Origin: Planctomycetota bacterium
Lineage (GTDB): Bacteria; Planctomycetota; UBA8108; UBA1146
Direction: 5' to 3'
DNA: 64,000 bases
Assembly (NCBI GenBank): GCA_028825265.1
Contig: JAPKAM010000003.1
Location: 3,547 to 67,546, forward strand
The position numbers and the translations under genes are program-made. Shown piece by piece: positions 1 to 10,233 of the stretch (the stretch's first letter is position 1; each line of letters opens with the position of its first letter). The notes under the pieces were generated by a model. The model saw nothing but the letters and a program-made list of their open reading frames with translations, was not told the DNA's origin and did not search any database.

Positions 1-375
1 GAACACTTCACCCATGCCACCGGACCCGATCTTGATGACTTCACTCCAGCGCCCATCGGCAAGGGTCTCTGGTAATGCCTGGTGGTAAATCATCTCGACC
101 GATCCGATGCGAATACGGTCACCCGATCGCAAGGATGTTTCGTCGGTTATTTTCTTCGACGGCAGCCCCTCGGCGGTCAGCCAGGTCCCGTTACTGGAGG
201 CCAGGTCGCGAATCCAGTCGGTACCGGCCCTTTGCTGGATGGATGCATGACTCCGGGAGACTCCAGGCTCCAGGATCCTCAGGGAACAGTCGGGGCCTCT
301 TCCGATGGTGAAAATCCCGCTTTCCGGGAGTTCATGGCGACCCGCGTTCTGGTGGGTGATCTCGATCCAGTTCAT
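1..375 (-). CDS. FHA domain-containing Ser/Thr protein kinase (N-terminal part; gene continues past window start)
   Basis: Manual minus-strand translation from ATG ~375: MNWIEITHQNAGRHELPESGIFTIGRGPDCSLRILEPGVSRSHASIQ...LASSNGTWL (FHA signature GR..SR.HA / SNGT), then ...KIGSGGMGEVF (kinase glycine loop). Absent from the ORF track because the stop lies outside the window. Confidence 0.7.
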   Translation of the reverse strand, partial: MNWIEITHQNAGRHELPESGIFTIGRGPDCSLRILEPGVSRSHASIQQRAGTDWIRDLASSNGTWLTAEGLPSKKITDETSLRSGDRIRIGSVEMIYHQALPETLADGRWSEVIKIGSGGMGEVF

Positions 376-529
376 GGCTCCGATGCTGCCTCGATCCTGC
401 CAACTCTGCAACCAATCCCCGAGAGCCGTGAATGGAGGTCCTTCTGTCCAGCACCTCCACACTCGTGATATTATCCTAGCCGTACCATAGACTGACTCGC
501 TCGCTCGAAATGGATGGATCGAGTCACCG

Positions 530-907
530 TTGAGCCCACATCTTCTGGAGGAGAATCTCGACACGGTTCACCTGGAAAGTTCAATATTGCATCTAATTCT
601 GGTCTCTCACCCTCCTGATTCCGCCGCCTCACTGGCCCGTGGCCTGGTCGAGGAAGGGCTGGCTGCCTGTGTCAACATCTTGCCAGGCTCTCGTTCCATC
701 TATCGCTGGGAGGATAAAACTTGCGACGAGGAAGAGGTGCTGCTGACCATCAAGACGGCCCGGGAACCGATCGAGGAGCTGGTCGAATTGATCGCTAGTC
801 GGCATCCTCACGAGTGCCCTGAAGTGCTCGTGGTACCTGTCACTGCCGGGCTCGATCGATACCTGAAATGGGTAGAGAAGATGAGTCACGGAGAGGAGTC
901 CAGTTGA
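530..907 (+). CDS. cutA: divalent-cation tolerance protein CutA
   Basis: LARGLVEEGLAACVNILPGSRSIYRWEDK...EEEVLLTIKT...HPHECPEVLVVPV matches the CutA1 family pattern. The true start is probably an internal GTG/TTG. Confidence 0.7.
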   Translation: MSPHLLEENLDTVHLESSILHLILVSHPPDSAASLARGLVEEGLAACVNILPGSRSIYRWEDKTCDEEEVLLTIKTAREPIEELVELIASRHPHECPEVLVVPVTAGLDRYLKWVEKMSHGEESS

Positions 908-2139
908 TCGATCTCGAAGAAGCTCGCAAGCAGATTCTCGCGCGAATCGCACCCATCGGATCGGAGCACGTCCGCCTCGAAGATGCGCTCGGGAGAATTC
1001 TCTCACAGTCAGTCCCGACTCGAGATCCGATTCCGCCCTTCGACAACACTGCTATGGATGGATTCGTATTAAAGTACAGAGACACATCGAGTGCCTCGCC
1101 AGATCATCCAGTCACCCTTCCAGTGGTCGCCACAATCGAGGCGGGGATGGCCCCCACCATTCCACTCGAAGATCACTGTGCGATGAAAATTTTCACTGGA
1201 GCCGTGATCCCACCCGGAGGTGACTCCATCATCCCGTTCGAACGCTGCCTCCGATACGATGAACGAACCATCGTCATCCAGCAGCCGGTCGCCCAGGGAG
1301 CACACATTCGAAGACTCGGTGAAGATGTCGAGGCTCAAGGATCAGTACTGGCCCCCGGCTCACGCATCACTCCTGCAGCCATCGGCTTGCTCGCGAGTGT
1401 CGGAGCGGCTCAGGTGCAGGTGAACCGGAGGCCTCGTGTCGCCATCCATTCCAGTGGTAACGAACTGGTTTCCATCGCATCGGAACTGCAACCAGGCCAG
1501 ATCCGCAATTCGAACCTCTATTCTCTGCAAGCTCGAGTGAAACGCTGGGGAGCGATTCCCATCGCTCGGCCCATCCTCCGAGATGATCTGGATCTGATCC
1601 GCTCAGGACTTCGCGAAACTCTCGAACTGAAGCCCGATGCCATCGTCACCACCGGCGGAATCAGTGCCGGGGATCTCGACCATATTCGCGATGTGGCCCG
1701 GGAAATGGGAGACGATGTGCAGATTCGCAAGGTTTCGATGAAGCCTGGCAAGCCACTGGTGGACGGCCTGATCGGTGGAGTCCCATTTTTTGGATTGCCC
1801 GGCAACCCGGCCGCCTGCCTCGTCTCCTTCGAAATCTTCGTTAGGCCGGCCCTGGCTCGGATGGAAGGAAGATCCGATGGGATCCTTCCGCAGCGTTGCG
1901 GGGTTCTGAAGGCAGCAAAAGAAGTTCCCCCATCAGATCGGCTACGCTTGCTCCGCGGAAGGGCCACTCCCGCTGCTGACGGTGGCCCCGATGTGATCGA
2001 GATTCCTTCAGGGCAAGGCTCTCACCTGCTGGGGGGATTCGCAGCCGCAAATTGCTTGGTCATCGCTCCCGCCAGCACCGAGGTGCTGCGCCCGGGAGCG
2101 CAGGTTCACTACTGGTCATTGACGGATGAAGAGGCATAA
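904..2139 (+). CDS. moeA: molybdopterin molybdenumtransferase MoeA
   Basis: FDNTAMDGFVL motif and TTGGISAGDLDH match MoeA. The ORF track starts at 868, but TTG at 904 (MIDLEEARKQIL, typical MoeA N-terminus) overlaps the cutA stop as TTGA. Confidence 0.85.
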   Translation: MIDLEEARKQILARIAPIGSEHVRLEDALGRILSQSVPTRDPIPPFDNTAMDGFVLKYRDTSSASPDHPVTLPVVATIEAGMAPTIPLEDHCAMKIFTGAVIPPGGDSIIPFERCLRYDERTIVIQQPVAQGAHIRRLGEDVEAQGSVLAPGSRITPAAIGLLASVGAAQVQVNRRPRVAIHSSGNELVSIASELQPGQIRNSNLYSLQARVKRWGAIPIARPILRDDLDLIRSGLRETLELKPDAIVTTGGISAGDLDHIRDVAREMGDDVQIRKVSMKPGKPLVDGLIGGVPFFGLPGNPAACLVSFEIFVRPALARMEGRSDGILPQRCGVLKAAKEVPPSDRLRLLRGRATPAADGGPDVIEIPSGQGSHLLGGFAAANCLVIAPASTEVLRPGAQVHYWSLTDEEA

Positions 2140-5100
2140 ATCGATGAATGTGACGGCCCCGATACTGTTGAAGATCCACGATTCAAACGGGAAGAGAACC
2201 ATCTCCCTGACCGGCGAGGGTCCCTGGATCCTCGGACGAGATGCCGATTGTGAAGTGGTGATCGCCGATGATCGTGCATCCCGTCGTCACGCCCGCTTCA
2301 TCTCCACCAAACAAGGCCTAGTGATCGAGGATCTTGCCAGTTCGAATGGAACGATGCTCGATGGACGAACCATCGAGGGGCAAGCGCCGTTTCCACGCAG
2401 ATCGACGCTGAAGATCGGCGATGTCTTGATCCAGCACAAGAAACCGACCAAAAAACCGACCGGCGTCGCCGTCGGGGAGCGATCGGAGCGCAAACCCCCT
2501 CGGGAAACCATCGGCACATCTAAAGCAACCGTGAGAGAAGAAGGCTCTACCAGAGCCCACCTGACCCCGCCCACTTCAAGAGTTGCTCGATCCACCAGAA
2601 AAGCAACGAATCCGCTGGGGAACCTGCTGATTCTCTTTGTCACCATCGGAGCGATCGGTTTCATACTGAATCAACTGACCCGTTCTCCACAAGAGCCGCC
2701 GCAAGATCTGACAGTCGTTGCGGTCAATCCCGCCGATAGCCCGCCCACTTCTGATCTAGTGATCCCGGTCCCAGCACCGGGCCCTGAGCCGGTCGCGGCA
2801 CTCCCCGCTCAGGAAACGACATCCGATGAGAACGATCCGCTGATTCGGCCCGCCGCCAACGGTTTCCAGCCGGATGCAAAGTTCGACATCCCGTTCGAGC
2901 CGCGGATCGAGGATACGGTCTCCCCCGTTGGCGATGATCAGCGGCCCGACGCACAGACGATCGACACTCCTGTCGCGGGAAAACTGCAGTTAAGGATTCT
3001 TGACGACGCATGGCCTCCCTCCGATCGGATCATCGCTTATCAGTTCCATCAGAAGGACCATCATGGTGGTCCGACCTTCATCGATCGAAGAGGCAAGGAA
3101 TTGAAGCGGCGCGGAGCCGGCAGCCGAAAAGGATTTCGAGTGATCGCCCTCGAGGTGACCAACTCGACGGACAGCCGACAGTTGGTCCAGTTGAAGACTC
3201 CTCTCCGTAAGGACCTGGAGATGAGATTCAGCATCGATCCGGGACTGAGTTTGCGGCGTTTCCTCGCCATCGAGGATCCAGGCGACCAATCAGTACTGGT
3301 CGAGATGTTTGATGAAGAAGGGGAGCCCATCGATGCGGTCGAAAGGGTTCTGCTTCCTGGACGATCTGCTGAGAGTGCCAAGGAGGCGCTGGCCATCGCC
3401 CGTGAACGAGAACGTGAGGAGTGGGTGCGGGAGCAATTCCGGCTACGCCCCATCTCGGTAGAGGTGCAAGACGAGGCGGGCAAGCCGGTCGCAGGAGCGA
3501 GATTACTGCTCCTCTCCAGAGAGAGCCTGGCGGTGGTCGAAGGAATCACCGGAACCGATGGACGCTGGAGTTCGGTGGTGGTGCCAGGTTCCTGGACCAT
3601 CATTGCCCAGGGTGAAGTGGTCGACGATGTCGATCCCGATGCCAGCACACTGGTCGTGACTTTGCCAAGGTTGTTGTTGCTTCAAGAAACGATGGCCGAG
3701 GAAACTTCCAGCATCATCCTGGCGCCAAGAAAACAGACCGTCGTCTCGGTAGCGAACCGTCTGGAAAAGGGACTCCCCATCGAAAAGGTCTGGATCACAC
3801 CTCAACCGGTGGCCGCGGCCTTCACCACCGAACGGGTTGCGCTGGAGGTCGGAGTTCGAGGCCGACTCGAATCATCACGATTAGTTCCCACCGGCCAGTT
3901 CAGGTTATTGCTGTCGGGGCCGCCAGTAGACATCTGCGTTCTGTGCCGGACCCCTGAAGGTGAAGCGGCGCTGATGCGAGCCAAGACTGGAGGCGACCGA
4001 GATGTGGTGCCCATCTTGATCGATCCAGACCGTATGAGTCGCCTCCAGTACAGCGCCGAATCGGCTTTTGGTGGTGCAGCGGATGCGATCGTCGATGTGG
4101 TTGCTGTAGACGGCTTTCGGGAACGCTTCACTCTCGATACCCACCAGGCACGTCGCGCCTGGGTGATGCCCGGAACCTACCGACTCGAGACTCGAAGTTT
4201 CCTACCCGGCGGCAAGACTGCTCGCCTGTTGCCCTATCGGGCACACTTGTCCGCAGGACAGAAGTTTGACCTGGAACCTAGGTCTCCCTGGACTCCGAGG
4301 CTCCATTACGAACGCAAGGGCAAGACGATTCAGATGCGCCTCTCCATCTCCGATGCCGGGGGACGCGTTCTCGAGAAGATTCCGGGCAACGATGGCTCGC
4401 TGGCAGCCGTCGATCGTACGGGCAAGGTGCTGATCCAACGCTCCATCGGAGCGATGCGCTGGCAGGAAGCGGAAACGTTGCAGCGAGTCGATCTCGACAA
4501 GTTAAGCATCCAGATCGATGCACCCTTCGGCAACTCCGCCATCCGTGGAATCGCCGTAGCAGAGACTCCCATCACCGTCAACGATGCAGGATCGAGTGCC
4601 ACCGGACCCAGCATCTTCCGCGCGCGGATGAAATCGATGATGCCGGAGGTTTCCCGCAGCCTGAAGGGTTGCAAAGAGCATCTGGGCTGCGCCGATGGGG
4701 TCCTCAGGCTGTTGATGGATTTCGATATCTTCCTACCGCCGGGAGTCGGCGGCCTCGGAGGAGGTGGAGTCATCGTGCTCGACGCAGCCGTATTACATCG
4801 CTACACAGGACAGGGAGACTTGTTGCCCGGGGCCTACATTCATGAACTGGGTCATAACATCGGATTCGGCCACGACCCGTACATGTTGCTGGCCAATTGT
4901 GGAGTCGACGAGGGCATCTATGGGGAACTGGGATATCGACTGCTCAACGCCGACGCATTTCAGAAGACCATCCGATGGCTGCTCGACAGAAATAGTGATC
5001 AACGGTCGGTCTGGCAGCCAAATCCGGCAGTATTTGCGGCATTGAGATTCATCCATGGGATGGGTGTTCACCACAAGATGTTCACCGAACGCACGGCATC

Positions 5101-6271
5101 AGAGCAAACGTTGCGCCTCCATGGGCTTTCCAGTATCGAACGAATCGCGGCTCTCTACTCACTCGCCCTGGGTGAAAATGTTGCCTGGATCTTTCGCGCC
5201 AATGGCTGGCCAGTATTCGATGATCGCGTCGATCTAGGAGGCTCCTCGGTCAAGTTCACGCGAAAGCACCCCAAGCAATTGAACTACAACCGCCTAGACG
5301 GGACGGTGCTCAATGGCTGGTGGGTCCTGGGTCCGGTGGAATCTAGCGGCGGCCGCACCAATAAGCGGAACAGCAGTCCAGAGAAAACCGATACAACATG
5401 GAAACCAGTAGTGTGGCCGACACCTTTCACCGACCTCACCGCTGGGCAGGATCCAGTCACTCGTACTCGACAGTGGTTGTTGTTTCGACGGATCGTCGTC
5501 AACCAGGATATGGAGGCGAGGCTGACGGTCGCCGCAGATGTGAAGATGCAAATTCGCCTCAATGGTTCCCCGATCGGATTTATCGACGCCAGCCCACAGA
5601 TGAGCCAACCGATGCACGACGAACTGATGTTGAATCAGAAGAAGCCATTCCCCATCCAGTTATTTAGAGGTGAGAACATCATCGAAGTGGCGGTGTCCCA
5701 GATGGTCGGCACTCGTGGCTTCCGTCTGGAACTGATGACTGCCGAAGGAGATCCGGTTCCGGTGGGGATCCTCGACGAAGGCCCGCAAGGGGAGCAACTG
5801 TCTGAAGAGATCGTTAGAAACGACGCGCACCAGCCGCTGATCAATGGAGATTTTGAGGCCGAAAAATTGCTCGACGGCTGGATCCCAGGTGAAGTGGATC
5901 CGGGTGGCTCAATCCGCTTCGAAGGGGAAGCGGAAAACCTGGTCGAGGGGACCCAGGCACTGAAAGCCATCATCCGCACTCCTGGAGCCGGAGGAATCAT
6001 CCAGCGCATCGTCGTCACTCCAGGAAAGAAATATCGGGTGACGGCACTGGTGAAGGCGAGCCAGTTCGAGGGGGAAGCTCTGATCGGTTTCTTTACCGGC
6101 AGGCTCGGGTCATGGTCCTCTCGATCCGCTCCACTTCGACGAGATACGGAGTGGACCAGGATCAAGTTTGACTGGATGCCCGGAACCAGTAGAACCACCT
6201 ACATCGCCTGTTTCGTGAAAGGAATATCCGGTACAGTCTGGTTCGACAAGATCTCCCTGGAGGAAATTTGA
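2126..6271 (+). CDS. FHA-domain transmembrane protein with extracellular metzincin-like zinc peptidase, carboxypeptidase-regulatory-like and CBM-like jelly-roll domains
   Basis: N-terminal FHA (ILGRDADCEVVIADDRASRRHARFI...LASSNGTMLDG...LKIGDVL). One hydrophobic helix NLLILFVTIGAIGFILNQL. HELGHNIGFGHD is the HExxHxxGxxH metzincin consensus. TDGRW segment resembles a CarboxypepD_reg fold. C-terminal beta-sandwich resembles CBM4/9. An alternative start ATG at 2144 lies just after the moeA stop. Confidence 0.8.
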   Translation: MKRHKSMNVTAPILLKIHDSNGKRTISLTGEGPWILGRDADCEVVIADDRASRRHARFISTKQGLVIEDLASSNGTMLDGRTIEGQAPFPRRSTLKIGDVLIQHKKPTKKPTGVAVGERSERKPPRETIGTSKATVREEGSTRAHLTPPTSRVARSTRKATNPLGNLLILFVTIGAIGFILNQLTRSPQEPPQDLTVVAVNPADSPPTSDLVIPVPAPGPEPVAALPAQETTSDENDPLIRPAANGFQPDAKFDIPFEPRIEDTVSPVGDDQRPDAQTIDTPVAGKLQLRILDDAWPPSDRIIAYQFHQKDHHGGPTFIDRRGKELKRRGAGSRKGFRVIALEVTNSTDSRQLVQLKTPLRKDLEMRFSIDPGLSLRRFLAIEDPGDQSVLVEMFDEEGEPIDAVERVLLPGRSAESAKEALAIAREREREEWVREQFRLRPISVEVQDEAGKPVAGARLLLLSRESLAVVEGITGTDGRWSSVVVPGSWTIIAQGEVVDDVDPDASTLVVTLPRLLLLQETMAEETSSIILAPRKQTVVSVANRLEKGLPIEKVWITPQPVAAAFTTERVALEVGVRGRLESSRLVPTGQFRLLLSGPPVDICVLCRTPEGEAALMRAKTGGDRDVVPILIDPDRMSRLQYSAESAFGGAADAIVDVVAVDGFRERFTLDTHQARRAWVMPGTYRLETRSFLPGGKTARLLPYRAHLSAGQKFDLEPRSPWTPRLHYERKGKTIQMRLSISDAGGRVLEKIPGNDGSLAAVDRTGKVLIQRSIGAMRWQEAETLQRVDLDKLSIQIDAPFGNSAIRGIAVAETPITVNDAGSSATGPSIFRARMKSMMPEVSRSLKGCKEHLGCADGVLRLLMDFDIFLPPGVGGLGGGGVIVLDAAVLHRYTGQGDLLPGAYIHELGHNIGFGHDPYMLLANCGVDEGIYGELGYRLLNADAFQKTIRWLLDRNSDQRSVWQPNPAVFAALRFIHGMGVHHKMFTERTASEQTLRLHGLSSIERIAALYSLALGENVAWIFRANGWPVFDDRVDLGGSSVKFTRKHPKQLNYNRLDGTVLNGWWVLGPVESSGGRTNKRNSSPEKTDTTWKPVVWPTPFTDLTAGQDPVTRTRQWLLFRRIVVNQDMEARLTVAADVKMQIRLNGSPIGFIDASPQMSQPMHDELMLNQKKPFPIQLFRGENIIEVAVSQMVGTRGFRLELMTAEGDPVPVGILDEGPQGEQLSEEIVRNDAHQPLINGDFEAEKLLDGWIPGEVDPGGSIRFEGEAENLVEGTQALKAIIRTPGAGGIIQRIVVTPGKKYRVTALVKASQFEGEALIGFFTGRLGSWSSRSAPLRRDTEWTRIKFDWMPGTSRTTYIACFVKGISGTVWFDKISLEEI

Positions 6272-7065
6272 TGCCCCAACTGACCAACCCGTTCGAACCA
6301 CTCTGGCCCGAGATGAGTGAAATCTACCTTCAATCGGGGGTCGTATCCTTGATCGATCACATCGGCTCGAAGAGTGAGCCGATGCAACGCCGGGGCTTGT
6401 TCTTGATGGCCAGTCAGCGCATCTCTGCAGGCCAGAACCTATCGAGATCTCTTTCTGATCTCATCGCAATTTCTCGTGCCGCCATCGATGAGTTTGCGAC
6501 TCAAGCAGAGTCTGAAACGGATAGGGATGAACGGGCGAGGCGCCTCGATGGAGCCAACATCCTCTCCTACAACCTTTCCGCAGACCTGGCTCCATGCTGG
6601 CCTGAAGATCCTGAGCCTCGAACCGTCGACCACTACCAGGAGGGGATTCGCTGTGCAGAGGATTGCCTTCGCTGGCGATCGGAACTGAACAAGGGAGCTG
6701 TGCCGTTCCACATGGCCTGGTGGGCGCTCGGAACTCATCGATGTGGGCTGGCAGACTGGTCCGCTGCCGTTGAAGCCTTCGGAAAATCCCTCGAAGCGGC
6801 TCAAGACAACGCCAGAGAGTCTGCAACACCCGTCGAAGGAGGACCGGATGCATCGTTCCTCATCAATATTTCGACCGGCTGGCTCGAGTTCGCTCGCTGG
6901 CGAGGAGGCGACAAGACCTCCTATGATCGATTCTTGAAAGTGATCGACGCTTTTTCTCAGATCGCCCGGCGTAATGATGACGATCATGCCGATTCAATGC
7001 TCGGGATCCAGCAACTGGAAACCGCAGCATCGCGGCTGCCGACAAGTTCGGCCCCGTGTCAGTGA
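6268..7065 (+). CDS. hypothetical protein
   Basis: 265-aa ORF with start overlapping the upstream stop (ATGA-type coupling), no recognisable motifs, coding-like composition. Confidence 0.5.
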   Translation: MMPQLTNPFEPLWPEMSEIYLQSGVVSLIDHIGSKSEPMQRRGLFLMASQRISAGQNLSRSLSDLIAISRAAIDEFATQAESETDRDERARRLDGANILSYNLSADLAPCWPEDPEPRTVDHYQEGIRCAEDCLRWRSELNKGAVPFHMAWWALGTHRCGLADWSAAVEAFGKSLEAAQDNARESATPVEGGPDASFLINISTGWLEFARWRGGDKTSYDRFLKVIDAFSQIARRNDDDHADSMLGIQQLETAASRLPTSSAPCQ

Positions 7066-7820
7066 GATCCCCTAAAATTCGCCCACTGGAAATCCTTCAC
7101 GACGACCATCAGTTCGTCGCGGTCAACAAACCTGCCGGCTTCAGCACCGTGAGCGAACGGTGGGACCACCAGATTCCCTGTCTGATCGATTTGCTCTGGG
7201 ATCTTTGGAAGCAGAGCGACTCCGATGCACCCAAACCCCATGTGGTACACCGCCTCGACAAACAGACTTCCGGGGTGATCCTGTTCGCCAGAAATGGCTC
7301 CGCTCAATCTCACCTGAGAAAACAGTTCATGGATCGGCGGGTGCAGAAGCGTTACGGCGCACTGGTCACCGACCTTCCGTCCCCGGCCAGTGGCACTAGC
7401 ATCTTTCATGTCGACGAAAATCCCTCTCGCCCAGGATCGATGAAATTTCAGTCCACCGGCAAGGAATGCATCACCGATTACCGGGTGCTGGAGGCTTTCC
7501 GCGACCACTGCTGGGTCGAAGCTTCCCCCAGTACCGGAAGAACCCACCAGATCCGCATGGTGATGGCGAAACTGAAAACCCCCTGTATCTGCGACCCTCT
7601 TTATGGAGATGGCGAGTCACTGTTCCTGTCCTCCTTCAAAAAGAGTTACCGCAGCGGCAGATCGGACGAGGAGCGGCCGCTACTGGGTCGACTCGGGCTC
7701 CATGCCCTTTCCATCTCGGTGCTCCATCCCGTCACAAACCTACCTATGACCATCGAAGCGGGGTTACCCAAGGATCTCAAGGCTACGTTGCGACAGCTGA
7801 GACGCTGGGGCCAAGTCTGA
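7056..7820 (+). CDS. RluA-family pseudouridine synthase
   Basis: HRLDKQTSGVILFA (catalytic Asp motif) and TGRTHQIR motif. Confidence 0.8.
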   Translation: MSVRSPKIRPLEILHDDHQFVAVNKPAGFSTVSERWDHQIPCLIDLLWDLWKQSDSDAPKPHVVHRLDKQTSGVILFARNGSAQSHLRKQFMDRRVQKRYGALVTDLPSPASGTSIFHVDENPSRPGSMKFQSTGKECITDYRVLEAFRDHCWVEASPSTGRTHQIRMVMAKLKTPCICDPLYGDGESLFLSSFKKSYRSGRSDEERPLLGRLGLHALSISVLHPVTNLPMTIEAGLPKDLKATLRQLRRWGQV

Positions 7821-7915: not shown

Positions 7916-8539
7916 GTGCTCCCGATGAACCAACCAGCGCCAGGCACCGTCTCCGATTGCGTGATCCTCGCCGGTGGTATGGGCACCCGCATGGGCCAAC
8001 CCAAGGCACTGTTAAAGATCAACGACCGCACCTTGCTGAAGCGTCAGCATGATCAACTCTCCCCCCTGTTTCCCCGCATCTCCGTGGCGCTCAAGGATTC
8101 GAGCCTGCTCGACCCGGTGGAGGCCCTCTGCTGGCACCAGGTCCTGCTGGATCCTCCCGGAAGTCGCTGCTTAGTCGATGTGATCGGTTCCATCATCGAG
8201 CGACTGGCCGTTCCAGTCTTCTTCGCCGCTGTCGACCTTCCTCACCTGAACCAAGCCGTCGTTTCCACCATCTGTTCGCACCACAGTGCCGGAATCTCGG
8301 TGATCCCGGTCGATGATCAGCGGCCCCAACCACTGGCTGCGGTATGGGACCCCTCGGCACTCGAGTTTGTTTCCCCACCCGACGGCGATCTAGCGCTACT
8401 GGCCTGGGTCAAGAGGTGCAGAACCCGGCTTCTTCACTGGCCCGAGCAGTTCTGTTCTGAAGGAGATCCACCAACGACCAGCCCATTCAAGAATCTCAAC
8501 ACCCCCGAGGACCTCGAAACGTGGGAGGCAGACGCTTGA
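7916..8539 (+). CDS. mobA: molybdenum cofactor guanylyltransferase MobA
   Basis: ILAGGMGTRMGQPKALL nucleotide-binding motif, about 200 aa, Moco genes elsewhere in window. Confidence 0.7.
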   Translation: MLPMNQPAPGTVSDCVILAGGMGTRMGQPKALLKINDRTLLKRQHDQLSPLFPRISVALKDSSLLDPVEALCWHQVLLDPPGSRCLVDVIGSIIERLAVPVFFAAVDLPHLNQAVVSTICSHHSAGISVIPVDDQRPQPLAAVWDPSALEFVSPPDGDLALLAWVKRCRTRLLHWPEQFCSEGDPPTTSPFKNLNTPEDLETWEADA

Positions 8540-10233
8540 GTGGTTCCCCCGTGCCGGCTCGAGAACGGCTGATGACCCTCCAACGAAATCTCTCCGACCA
8601 GACTCGTCGAGAGATCGACGAATCAATCATCGACCCCAGTGGAGCCTTGTCACGATGGCGTAAGGTCTACGAGAAGGCCACGGAGGGTCAACTCACTCCC
8701 ATCTCGATCGACCATCTCGCCGAGCAGATCGTCGATTTTGATGTGGTTCACTTCGGCGACTATCACACGCTCAGAGAATCTCAGAAGGGGCCTCTCAGGG
8801 TGATCGAGAAGTGGATCCAGCAGGGGAACAAAGTGGTTCTCGCCACGGAAGCGTTTCACATCGATGCACAACCATTACTCGACCGGTGGTGCCTGCGAGA
8901 AATCGATGACGAGCAGTTACTCAGGGAGTCGGACTGGGAAAATCGATGGGGCTTTCCCTGGAGAAACTACTCGGTACAAATGGAGTTCTTCCGCGAAGCC
9001 GGCTTGCCCATCGTGGCCCTCAACTCAGAACCAGAGGTCGTCGGAAACTCCTTCGCCGCGCGGGAGAACATCGCTGCGATGAGGATTCTTGAGGTGCTTA
9101 GAGAGTTCCCCGATGCGACTCTGGCGGTGATCTTCGGTGATCTCCACGTGGCTCCAGAACACCTACCTCGTAAGATTTCTGAACTGGCAAAGCGTACCGG
9201 GTTCACAGTTCCTCGCCAAACCACCGTGTTCCAGAATCTGGATCGAATTTACTGGCAGCTGGCCAAGACCGGATTGGAGCAAACGGTCACCGCTGTGCGG
9301 ATCGGGAATGATCGCTACTGCATGATCAACACGACTCCACTGGTCAAGCATCAGTCCTACCTCAACTGGCAGTTGAATGAGGTGGAATTGGAAGAGTCGA
9401 GTGGATTCCGCAACCTACCCTCGATTTCATCGACGATCATGTCCGATCAGGTCTGGATGATGATCGAGACCATCTGCGGCTACCTTGAATTGTCCACCGC
9501 TGGACTCGATGGCTTCACGGTTCACACCGGAAGAAACCTCGATCTTCTCGATCGGCTCAGAGATGCCCATTCCCTGGGTGCTGAACAAATGGAACTGGTG
9601 AACACCCAGTTGTCGCGTGAGGAATCGTGTTATCTTCCCGATTCTCAGGTCATCGTCCTGGGTAACCTATCCAGCCGTCATGCCGCAGAAGAAGCGGCAC
9701 ACCACATCAACTCGGTGAGGTGCAACGAAACCGGCACCGCCAGTGATTCGCTCCAACACTTCTACGAGATCGCCATCCGGGAAGCGATCGGCTACATCGG
9801 CACCAAGATCATCGACCACAAACGAACCTGTCTGGATGTGAAGGAACTCGAATCATTGGCCAATGAATTGAGCGGCCACTCTCTCGATTCCCTGCTCACA
9901 GCAACCCTTCAAACAGTCCGTGATTCACTGCGGCACATCGAAACCGAACAGACATGGCTTGAAGGAGATGGGGGAAATAAAACTCCCAACGAACTACCTC
10001 GACGAGATCAGGATATCCGCATCGGCACTGCCCACCTCATCGGTTACCGATTGGGAGAGAAGATCTACAACTGCCTGGTTACAGGAAAGATCAAGCGATC
10101 GAAGGTGCGGGAACTGTTCGAAACACCGTTACGCCACCCTGTCGATGCGAGCCAATCGACGTGGCTCGACTGGGCCCGACGTTGTTACGAGGCGGATTCC
10201 TCTTCTTCGTCGAGCAACTCCAGCCGAGGATAG
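8521..10233 (+). CDS. hypothetical protein, possible ChaN/Tiki (TraB/GumN) superfamily haem-binding-like domain
   Basis: VVHFGDYHTLRESQ...VVLATEAFH resembles the ChaN GEQHD...H pattern. Weak assignment. The 3' end overlaps the metG 3' end convergently. Confidence 0.5.
   Translation: MGGRRLSGSPVPARERLMTLQRNLSDQTRREIDESIIDPSGALSRWRKVYEKATEGQLTPISIDHLAEQIVDFDVVHFGDYHTLRESQKGPLRVIEKWIQQGNKVVLATEAFHIDAQPLLDRWCLREIDDEQLLRESDWENRWGFPWRNYSVQMEFFREAGLPIVALNSEPEVVGNSFAARENIAAMRILEVLREFPDATLAVIFGDLHVAPEHLPRKISELAKRTGFTVPRQTTVFQNLDRIYWQLAKTGLEQTVTAVRIGNDRYCMINTTPLVKHQSYLNWQLNEVELEESSGFRNLPSISSTIMSDQVWMMIETICGYLELSTAGLDGFTVHTGRNLDLLDRLRDAHSLGAEQMELVNTQLSREESCYLPDSQVIVLGNLSSRHAAEEAAHHINSVRCNETGTASDSLQHFYEIAIREAIGYIGTKIIDHKRTCLDVKELESLANELSGHSLDSLLTATLQTVRDSLRHIETEQTWLEGDGGNKTPNELPRRDQDIRIGTAHLIGYRLGEKIYNCLVTGKIKRSKVRELFETPLRHPVDASQSTWLDWARRCYEADSSSSSSNSSRG

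Follow-up and report, generated by a model that had tools for sequence, protein, structure and literature searches.

The DNA analyzed here, hereafter the window, is a 64,000-nucleotide (nt) stretch from a Planctomycetota bacterium (assembly GCA_028825265.1, contig JAPKAM010000003.1, positions 3,547 to 67,546 of the forward strand), and our subject is a large gene near its start whose product joins an FHA domain, a transmembrane (TM) helix and an ectodomain bearing an HExxH zinc-site motif. The gene lies in an uninterrupted open reading frame (ORF) of 1381 codons on the + strand (2126..6271) and encodes a five-part protein of 1375–1381 amino acids (aa), depending on the start chosen. The start at M7 (nt 2144), which gives a gene at 2144..6271 and a product of 1375 aa in place of the mechanical ORF from 2126, is the one used by the deposited NCBI model and by all orthologues; it sits 4 nt past the moeA stop, with AAGAGG 9 nt upstream. 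The NCBI model is 100% identical and is named 'MAG: FHA domain-containing protein [Planctomycetota bacterium]', MAG standing for metagenome-assembled genome.

Read from its N terminus on the + strand, the protein consists of a cytoplasmic FHA domain (aa 34-98, 2225..2419), a cytoplasmic linker (aa 99-162), a single TM helix oriented N-in/C-out (aa 163-185, 2612..2680) and a Pro-rich extracytoplasmic linker (aa 186-284, 2681..2977) that is weakly conserved and gap-rich in the family alignment. There follow a stalk of about six beta-sandwich domains and one long helix (aa 285-827, 2978..4606), which opens with a conserved DAWPP, an HExxH alpha/beta domain resembling zinc peptidases (aa 829-1044, 4610..5257), a beta-sandwich or jelly-roll domain (aa 1064-1209, 5315..5752) and a C-terminal jelly roll resembling the carbohydrate-binding modules (CBMs) of families 4/9/16/22 (aa 1238-1380, 5837..6265).

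The segment at aa 163-185 is the only hydrophobic stretch of TM grade in the protein (Kyte-Doolittle hydropathy 2.19, the sole segment above 1.6), and its flanks carry four K/R on the N side, against no K/R and three D/E on the C side. The positive-inside rule places the HExxH module outside the cytoplasm, as an earlier note on this DNA had claimed, and relatives in which nothing but a signal peptide precedes this module are strong independent evidence for the same side. Judged from its sequence, the gene product is shown to be a predicted type-II single-pass protein of the cytoplasmic membrane, with the FHA domain facing the cytoplasm and a module of ~1100 aa facing the periplasm or envelope. 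The plan given in that note, an FHA domain, one TM helix and a large extracytoplasmic region, is thus real, and it is conserved in the orthologues.

The FHA domain was recognized by Pfam (PF00498, 49 bits against a cut-off of 20.7, E 8e-13) and by matches to FHA structures in the PDB. The residues of its phosphothreonine (pThr) pocket, G37-R38, S52-R53-x-H55 and N74-G75-T76, are intact and are invariant in 12 orthologues, and GR, S[RK]xH and NG[TS] are kept in every FHA domain examined, whether fused, split or kinase-borne. GR, SxxH and NG are the pThr-binding motifs of FHA domains (PMC1262709). By these residues, the FHA domain of the large protein looks competent for pThr binding. Its nearest solved or curated relatives are bacterial signalling FHA domains and not scaffolds of type III secretion systems (T3SS): 3gqs, from a chlamydial adenylate-cyclase-like protein, Rv1747 (structure 6cah, E 8.5e-4) and FhaB/FipA. 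The last of these gave the best NCBIfam FHA match (E 1.6e-17), at 64 bits against a cut-off of 125 and with only the FHA domain covered. The Pfam model Yop-YscD_cpl scored above its cut-off in the same region (41 against 33.2 bits), where it overlaps the stronger generic FHA match. The cytoplasmic linker that follows is rich in S, T, K and R, weakly conserved and without an invariant Thr.

The zinc-site motif HELGHNIGFGHD was found intact at aa 906-917 (4841..4876), in keeping with the HExxHxxGxxH site first claimed for this protein, and is invariant in the family. The extended pattern HExGHxxG[FY]GHDPYM is present in 38 of 38 loci, down to ~25-28% overall identity, and H906, E907, H910, H916, D917 and E929 are invariant in an alignment of 22 sequences (26-100% identity). 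In the conservation profile, the HExxH region is the maximum of the whole protein. Remoter secreted relatives (P0038, P0040 and P0041) keep the pattern GGxGGG...HELLHxxGxGHxDxM. Since the catalytic Glu and every ligand candidate are kept, a pseudo-enzyme is unlikely, and so is the signal-transducing pseudo-protease initially offered as an alternative; the conserved motif argues for an active enzyme.

All 22 aligned members matched Reprolysin_5, Reprolysin_3 or Peptidase_M66, which are hidden Markov models (HMMs) of clan MA, in every case below threshold. For the large protein, the matches were centred on the motif and reached 17.9 bits against 20.6 for Peptidase_M66 (E 0.018), 16.6 against 22.4 for Reprolysin_3 (E 0.083) and 13.3 against 27 for Reprolysin_5, while NCBIfam Mep72 gave E 0.16. 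When the family profile was compared with the PDB, the best match was 9tpb, labelled as a metallopeptidase and metzincin (E 0.005), and ADAM17 and snake-venom adamalysins were found at E 0.015-0.07. The HExxH family and 9tpb have in common a PGxGGLGGG strand and HEFGHxxGYGHDxxM. The entries 9tpb/9tpc describe a recently deposited 356-aa 'metzincin' without a Pfam family, and our literature search found no publication on PDB 9TPB.

The HExxH domain was also modelled in isolation, with a predicted local distance difference test score (pLDDT) of 74.6 and a predicted template modelling score (pTM) of 0.71. In the ectodomain model described below, the HExxH helix stops at G913 and is followed by a loop with H916, as in metzincins, whereas the invariant E929 stands in the middle of the next helix with the exact HExxH-x18-E spacing of M1 and thermolysin-like enzymes. 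The nearly invariant M920 lies only four residues past H916, as in 9tpb, and is a candidate for the Met-turn. The best non-significant Foldseek matches of the isolated domain were all zinc peptidases, namely APN1 (4wz9, E 0.1, with the M1 matches ranging from 0.1 to 0.6) and the M60 enzyme ZmpC (6xsz, E 0.47, query-normalized TM-score 0.37); no metzincin was among the best 50, and no Pfam M1 or M60 match was found for the domain. We classify it as a clan-MA zincin that represents a new family and bears a motif of metzincin type, without placing it among the metzincins. In the label 'metzincin-type' used before, the extended motif therefore stands, but the HMMs are all sub-threshold and the weak fold matches point to the gluzincins M1 and M60.

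The ectodomain (aa 285-1381) was modelled with AlphaFold2 (AF2) from 17 diverse sequences (mean pLDDT 83.7, pTM 0.80). The predicted order opens with a beta-sandwich that contains a disordered loop; next come a long helix and about five further beta-sandwiches, which reach to aa ~827, followed by the HExxH alpha/beta domain (aa 829-1044), a beta-sandwich (aa 1064-1209) and the terminal jelly roll (aa 1263-1380). Compared with the PDB by Foldseek, the sandwich array resembled the macroglobulin-domain arrays of TEP1r, A2ML1, complement and E. coli alpha2-macroglobulin (E 1e-11 to 1e-7); because the global TM-scores are low, this likeness concerns the repeated domain type only. For the whole ectodomain, beta-sandwich and CBM matches dominated, and no peptidase was among the best 50. 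The domain at aa 1064-1209, assigned from the AF2 secondary structure, matched tandem CBMs and Cry protoxin.

Two of the ectodomain parts had been named earlier as carboxypeptidase-regulatory-like and CBM-like, and both are backed by the predicted fold, although the HMMs stay below threshold. CarboxypepD_reg (PF13620) reached 21.5 bits against 32.3 at aa 443-496, a region that is a beta-sandwich in the AF2 model. CBM_4_9 reached 25.8 bits against 25.9 at aa 1238-1353; it passes in the relative P0026 (27.2 bits), and PF02018 is a precomputed annotation on P0001 and P0007. The C-terminal domain superposes on CBM4, CBM16 and CBM22 structures with target-normalized TM-scores of 0.70-0.79 and probability 1.00 (8xmz, 2zew, 3oeb, 2y64 and 4d0q), and the Foldseek partners of the terminal jelly roll include CBM16, CBM4-2 and a porphyran-binding CBM.

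Loci of the family were collected by scanning one genome per species from 185,579 GTDB species, which gave 35 loci, and were annotated with HMMs built for this analysis. All loci from the scan lie in MAGs of uncultured Planctomycetota except for one contig labelled Bacillota. This contig (L043, QNYK01000069.1), binned as 'Bacillota bacterium MAG 7', is 77% identical and has the full planctomycete synteny, and is probably mis-binned. The 12 full-length orthologues, at 58-81% identity, have the same whole architecture, and the fusion of FHA, TM helix and ectodomain is present in 24 species-level MAGs as well as in many metagenome contigs. The survey of relatives suggested in the earlier note thus found the architecture conserved, and neither absent from relatives nor produced by assembly. 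At one locus (L031, DUAN01000120.1, coverage 0.69), an apparent frameshift divides the gene into separate ORFs for the FHA part and the ectodomain.

With a profile of aa 795-1080, which cover the HExxH region, an exhaustive HMM search of 1.84 billion representative proteins returned only 28 proteins at E<=1e-3, 21 of them at E<=1e-30. A word-indexed profile search yielded the close orthologues and P0016 only, and the distant members come from the exhaustive search alone. The HExxH family is very rare and undescribed, being without Pfam, NCBIfam or clear structural relative and confined to uncultured marine Planctomycetota. The first impression that this is no described family was borne out by the lack of any above-threshold Pfam or NCBIfam match to the HExxH domain. 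Our literature search found no paper whose title or abstract describes an FHA domain with a metalloprotease in Planctomycetes, or an FHA-peptidase architecture.

The conserved unit of the family is the ectodomain, from DAWPP (aa ~285) to the C-terminus, and what precedes it varies. FHA, linker and TM helix precede it in the clade of the window and in P0016, P0017 and P0027. In P0018, P0019, P0022, P0024, P0028 and P0030, this place is taken by a simple signal peptide or N-terminal anchor, and in P0023 a DUF418 multipass membrane domain (E 5e-39) replaces the FHA-TM part as a third mode of anchoring. Where there is only a signal peptide, the gene that follows directly downstream codes for a distinct FHA-TM protein and often overlaps the stop codon; this arrangement was counted in seven relatives. 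Such split loci are L009, L010/L039, L011, L038, L040, L041, L047 and L061. The separate FHA-TM gene encodes 522 aa in L009 and 202 aa in L010/L039, in both cases followed by rluA, and 504 aa in L011; the three split FHA proteins examined (L009, L010 and L011) each have an FHA domain and then exactly one TM helix. In L047 (1712-2561, + strand), the downstream partner has a tandem pair of FHA domains (E 5e-19 and 2e-17) in place of a single one.

Since the pairing is kept in L011 and L038 despite different surrounding genes, it is more than inherited synteny. The ectodomain comes before FHA-TM in the split form and after it in the fused form; therefore the two forms are not related by simple read-through. 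The periplasmic tails of the split FHA-TM proteins resemble no part of the fused protein and have only a short motif in common among themselves. The FHA-ectodomain linkage holds in 32 of the 35 assessable loci. By this 'Rosetta-stone' evidence from gene arrangement, the FHA-TM part and the ectodomain are shown to be a predicted conserved functional pair. The tie between FHA and protease drawn in the earlier note is strengthened by it, being preserved in fused as well as in neighbouring genes.

The window opens with the 5' end of a divergent gene (1..375, - strand), of which the first 125 aa were seen by six-frame translation before it runs off the window start. Its product has an FHA domain (Pfam FHA, E 8e-16) and then the glycine loop IGSGGMGEVF, with the kinase domain proper outside the window. 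The FHA-Ser/Thr kinase reported here earlier is thus visible in the window as an FHA domain and a glycine loop; the kinase itself was seen only in orthologous loci, where a protein of 797-884 aa with FHA and Pkinase domains and the motifs HADLKPGN and DFG stands at the same position. The kinase orthologue has no TM segment. Its FHA domain and that of the large protein are 38% identical over 61 residues, and the 64-kb window holds no further FHA or kinase gene. In 19 loci, among them the split-form L010/L039 at 39% identity, cutA-moeA is preceded by a divergently oriented FHA-Pkinase gene. In a full-length orthologue (L014:2017-4485, - strand), an insert of ~430 aa between the catalytic loop HADLKPGN and DFG splits the kinase domain, so that Pfam reports Pkinase twice, with a weak AAA_16 match between in some orthologues. 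At another locus (L064:11742-14612, + strand), a 956-aa Ser/Thr kinase with ~7 TPR lies 1.4 kb downstream of a divergent family member without FHA, past an oppositely oriented gene; this adjacency may be due to chance, Planctomycetota being rich in kinases.

The kinase gene is separated by a divergent intergenic region (376..529), presumably containing a promoter, from cutA (530..907, + strand), which encodes a CutA1 divalent-ion tolerance protein (Pfam CutA1, E 3e-31), and from moeA (868..2139, + strand), which encodes a molybdopterin molybdenumtransferase (Pfam MoeA_N, MoCF_biosynth and MoeA_C). These Pfam matches confirm the two genes that had been placed between the kinase and the large gene. 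A promoter scan of 376..529 gave no sigma-70-like site, which is uninformative for Planctomycetota. Downstream, the ATG of a gene that we named HYP265 (6271..7065, + strand; 264 aa, function unknown, no signal peptide) shares bases with the stop codon of the large gene (TGATG, 6269-6273), and its end is overlapped by a gene for an RluA-type pseudouridine synthase (7056..7820, + strand; Pfam PseudoU_synth_2, E 9e-30, and synteny). All five genes from cutA to rluA are on the + strand with junctions that overlap or span 4 nt, and no + strand terminator-like site was found between 530 and 7820; judged from this layout, cutA, moeA, the large gene, HYP265 and rluA are likely co-transcribed. The molybdenum-cofactor synthesis and pseudouridine-synthase functions of the neighbours give no hint on the large protein.

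HYP265 has no Pfam or NCBIfam match. It lies downstream in all fused-form loci whose flank is long enough, with identity down to ~41% (L008, L035 and L037), and was not reliably found in split-form loci; a 262-aa gene of L010 was considered as HYP265 and dropped, as it is 22% identical and had itself been used to build the HMM, which made the match circular. The downstream neighbour rluA is kept even in split-form loci. With a MobA-like NTP transferase encoded at 7916-8539 (+ strand), molybdenum-cofactor genes stand on both sides of the large gene. Next comes a 570-aa ChaN/Tiki-type protein with a Cofac_haem_bdg domain (8521-10233, + strand), in an order conserved across the clade. Beyond the window start, on the kinase side, a protein of ~1130 aa with a P_proprotein domain (subtilisin/kexin-associated) and a protein of 376-463 aa without a Pfam match are also conserved, as seen at L001:1-2500, L003:1403-4807 and L007:1446-4853.

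We favour, at about even chances, the reading of the large protein as a membrane-tethered zinc peptidase of the envelope that is positioned by phosphorylation through its FHA domain and targeted by its CBM-like domains. The HExxH domain would be an active zinc endopeptidase, which the Pro-rich tether (~100 aa) and the beta-sandwich stalk would hold away from the membrane and which the CBM-like domains would direct to a glycan-bearing substrate in the envelope or outside the cell. On the inner side, the FHA domain might dock on a cytoplasmic or membrane partner that is phosphorylated on Thr by a Hanks-type kinase, possibly the divergent FHA-kinase. The phosphorylation state of the cell could then position, cluster or switch the extracytoplasmic protease, which would be an inside-out control. 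The arrangement suggests a coupling of phosphorylation and proteolysis across the membrane. The stronger proposal, that of an undescribed transmembrane device in which FHA is hard-wired to a zinc protease of a new family, a Hanks-type kinase gates envelope proteolysis and the whole has evolved both as one chain and as a two-gene pair, is possible, but we lean against it.

Several observations weigh against the favoured reading. No Pfam or NCBIfam peptidase HMM reaches its gathering score in any of the 22 members, the isolated domain had 0 Foldseek matches in the PDB at E<=1e-3, and its model is only of modest pLDDT, with the presumed substrate-binding strand below 50. The third zinc ligand is ambiguous between H916 at the metzincin position and E929 at the gluzincin spacing. 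Three loci (L042, L044 and L045) have no FHA gene nearby, their downstream flanks being short (~1.4-1.8 kb); they represent the most divergent subfamily, which also holds the fused member P0027. Every carrier is an uncultured MAG, and sequence alone does not separate inside-out from outside-in signalling.

The link to the neighbouring kinase is weakened in the same way. The kinase is soluble, is separated from the large gene by cutA and moeA and is found only where the cutA-moeA block is. In 11 loci, among them L011 and L038 with their rearranged context, no copy of it lies within 6-7 kb, and the subclade L019-L025/L003/L007 is without it throughout, yet keeps cutA-moeA and the fused gene. Because the kinase is tied to cutA-moeA, missing from 11 loci and soluble, and because the FHA domains have diverged, we take its adjacency as a lead and not as evidence of a cognate pair. 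The role of regulator that had been suggested for this neighbour is at most hinted at, as the kinase travels with cutA-moeA and is missing from a whole subclade of the fused gene.

The same architecture could be read in the opposite direction, with the ectodomain binding a glycan or peptide of the envelope or environment, with or without cleavage, and clustering offering the FHA domain, along with the juxtamembrane linker rich in Thr and Ser, to the soluble FHA-kinase, for which the large protein would be the missing membrane receptor. A kinase orthologue that lacks a TM segment and has its own FHA domain would need a phosphorylated docking partner in the membrane, the linker is rich in S/T/K/R, CBM-like domains are ligand-binding modules and the large protein is the sole membrane-spanning component in the neighbourhood. 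However, conservation of the linker is low and none of its Thr is invariant, the kinase is missing beside many family members, and the strict invariance of the catalytic Glu and of the metal-ligand candidates suggests selection on catalysis beyond binding, so that we consider this outside-in receptor unlikely. Rather improbable in our view is a zinc hydrolase that acts on a non-protein envelope polymer or on the peptide stems of peptidoglycan, and thus remodels the wall in step with kinase signalling for growth or division instead of serving as a general protease. The CBM-like domains imply proximity to glycans, the gene context is one of housekeeping, and the FHA domain finds its best NCBIfam match, below the cut-off, in the division-associated mycobacterial FhaB/FipA; control of envelope hydrolases from the cytoplasmic side is known for mycobacterial PknA/B-FhaA/FipA and for FtsEX-type systems. 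Yet the large protein shows no similarity to any known peptidoglycan hydrolase family, and the FhaB/FipA match spans nothing but the FHA domain.

Another possibility is that the FHA-TM part and the stalk belong to an envelope-spanning assembly of the YscD/PrgH kind, in which FHA would act independently of phosphorylation. The above-cut-off match to Yop-YscD_cpl and the resemblance of the beta-sandwich array to stalk-like macroglobulin and pilus-type arrays would fit such a scaffold, but we hold it to be very unlikely: the match overlaps a stronger generic FHA match, the canonical pThr-binding residues are all retained and the conserved zinc motif would be left unexplained. Moreover, no secretion-system gene was found in the 64-kb window or in the related loci, where the neighbours are cutA, moeA, rluA, mobA-like, chaN-like and metG, that is, housekeeping genes. 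Finally, we give practically no credence to a fusion created by assembly or frameshift, or to HExxH as a chance motif in a non-enzymatic domain. Such an artefact could be seen in L031, where the gene is in two ORFs, but the gene is uninterrupted in the 24 independent species-level MAGs and the metagenome contigs, and the 15-residue extended pattern is identical in all loci down to the lowest overall identities; the locus survey refuted both versions.

Ser/Thr phosphorylation in bacteria is read mainly by FHA domains, whose outputs known to us are cytoplasmic enzymes, transporters and secretion machines. An extracytoplasmic protease as an FHA output would extend this list by an inside-out control of envelope proteolysis. 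If the stronger proposal of a hard-wired device is true, the large protein would be a prokaryotic analogue of the phospho-regulated ADAM/MT-MMP sheddases. Neither the envelope of Planctomycetota nor the unusually large set of kinases in this phylum is well understood. The value of the finding is limited by the uncultured state of the carriers and by a mechanism that we infer, and the fused and split gene pair offers a clean, testable prediction of physical partnership.

Among known systems with an FHA domain, the closest in kind are the Mycobacterium tuberculosis ABC exporter Rv1747, FhaA and FhaB/FipA, which likewise have a cytoplasmic FHA with intact pThr residues on a membrane effector and a gene near a Ser/Thr kinase. 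Their common ground with the large protein is the FHA domain alone, as the output here is an extracytoplasmic HExxH/CBM module of ~1100 aa and no transporter or cytoplasmic scaffold. YscD/PrgH of the T3SS inner-membrane ring are similar in the order of an FHA-fold cytoplasmic domain, a single TM helix and a large beta-rich periplasmic region, but in our case there are no T3SS genes nearby and no similarity to ring-building motifs, Foldseek gave no match to such structures, the pThr pocket is canonical and an HExxH domain is present.

On the side of the enzyme, the metzincins (adamalysin/ADAM M12B, StcE M66 and MMP M10) and 9tpb have HExxHxxGxxHD in common with the HExxH domain, together with the preceding Gly-rich strand in the adamalysins and 9tpb. 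The matches to metzincins are, however, sub-threshold (best E 2e-4 to 5e-3) and span only ~45-55 residues, and in contrast to the compact metzincins the domain continues after the motif with ~130 residues of helices. The gluzincins that carry CBMs, such as the M60-like/enhancin mucinases (e.g. ZmpC) and M1, resemble it in the Glu of HExxH-x18-E and in a multidomain layout with CBM-type modules, and the only structural neighbours of the isolated-domain model, non-significant ones, are of this kind; the difference lies in the invariant His at the third-ligand position of metzincins. ADAMs and MT-MMPs are likewise membrane-anchored enzymes with a cytoplasmic signalling portion, but the large protein is of type II (N-in) and has a folded cytoplasmic FHA domain in place of a tail. 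FHA-coupled membrane effectors and membrane-anchored zincins are thus both known kinds, and what is new is the combination of FHA and zincin, its conservation in fused and split form, and the zincin family itself.

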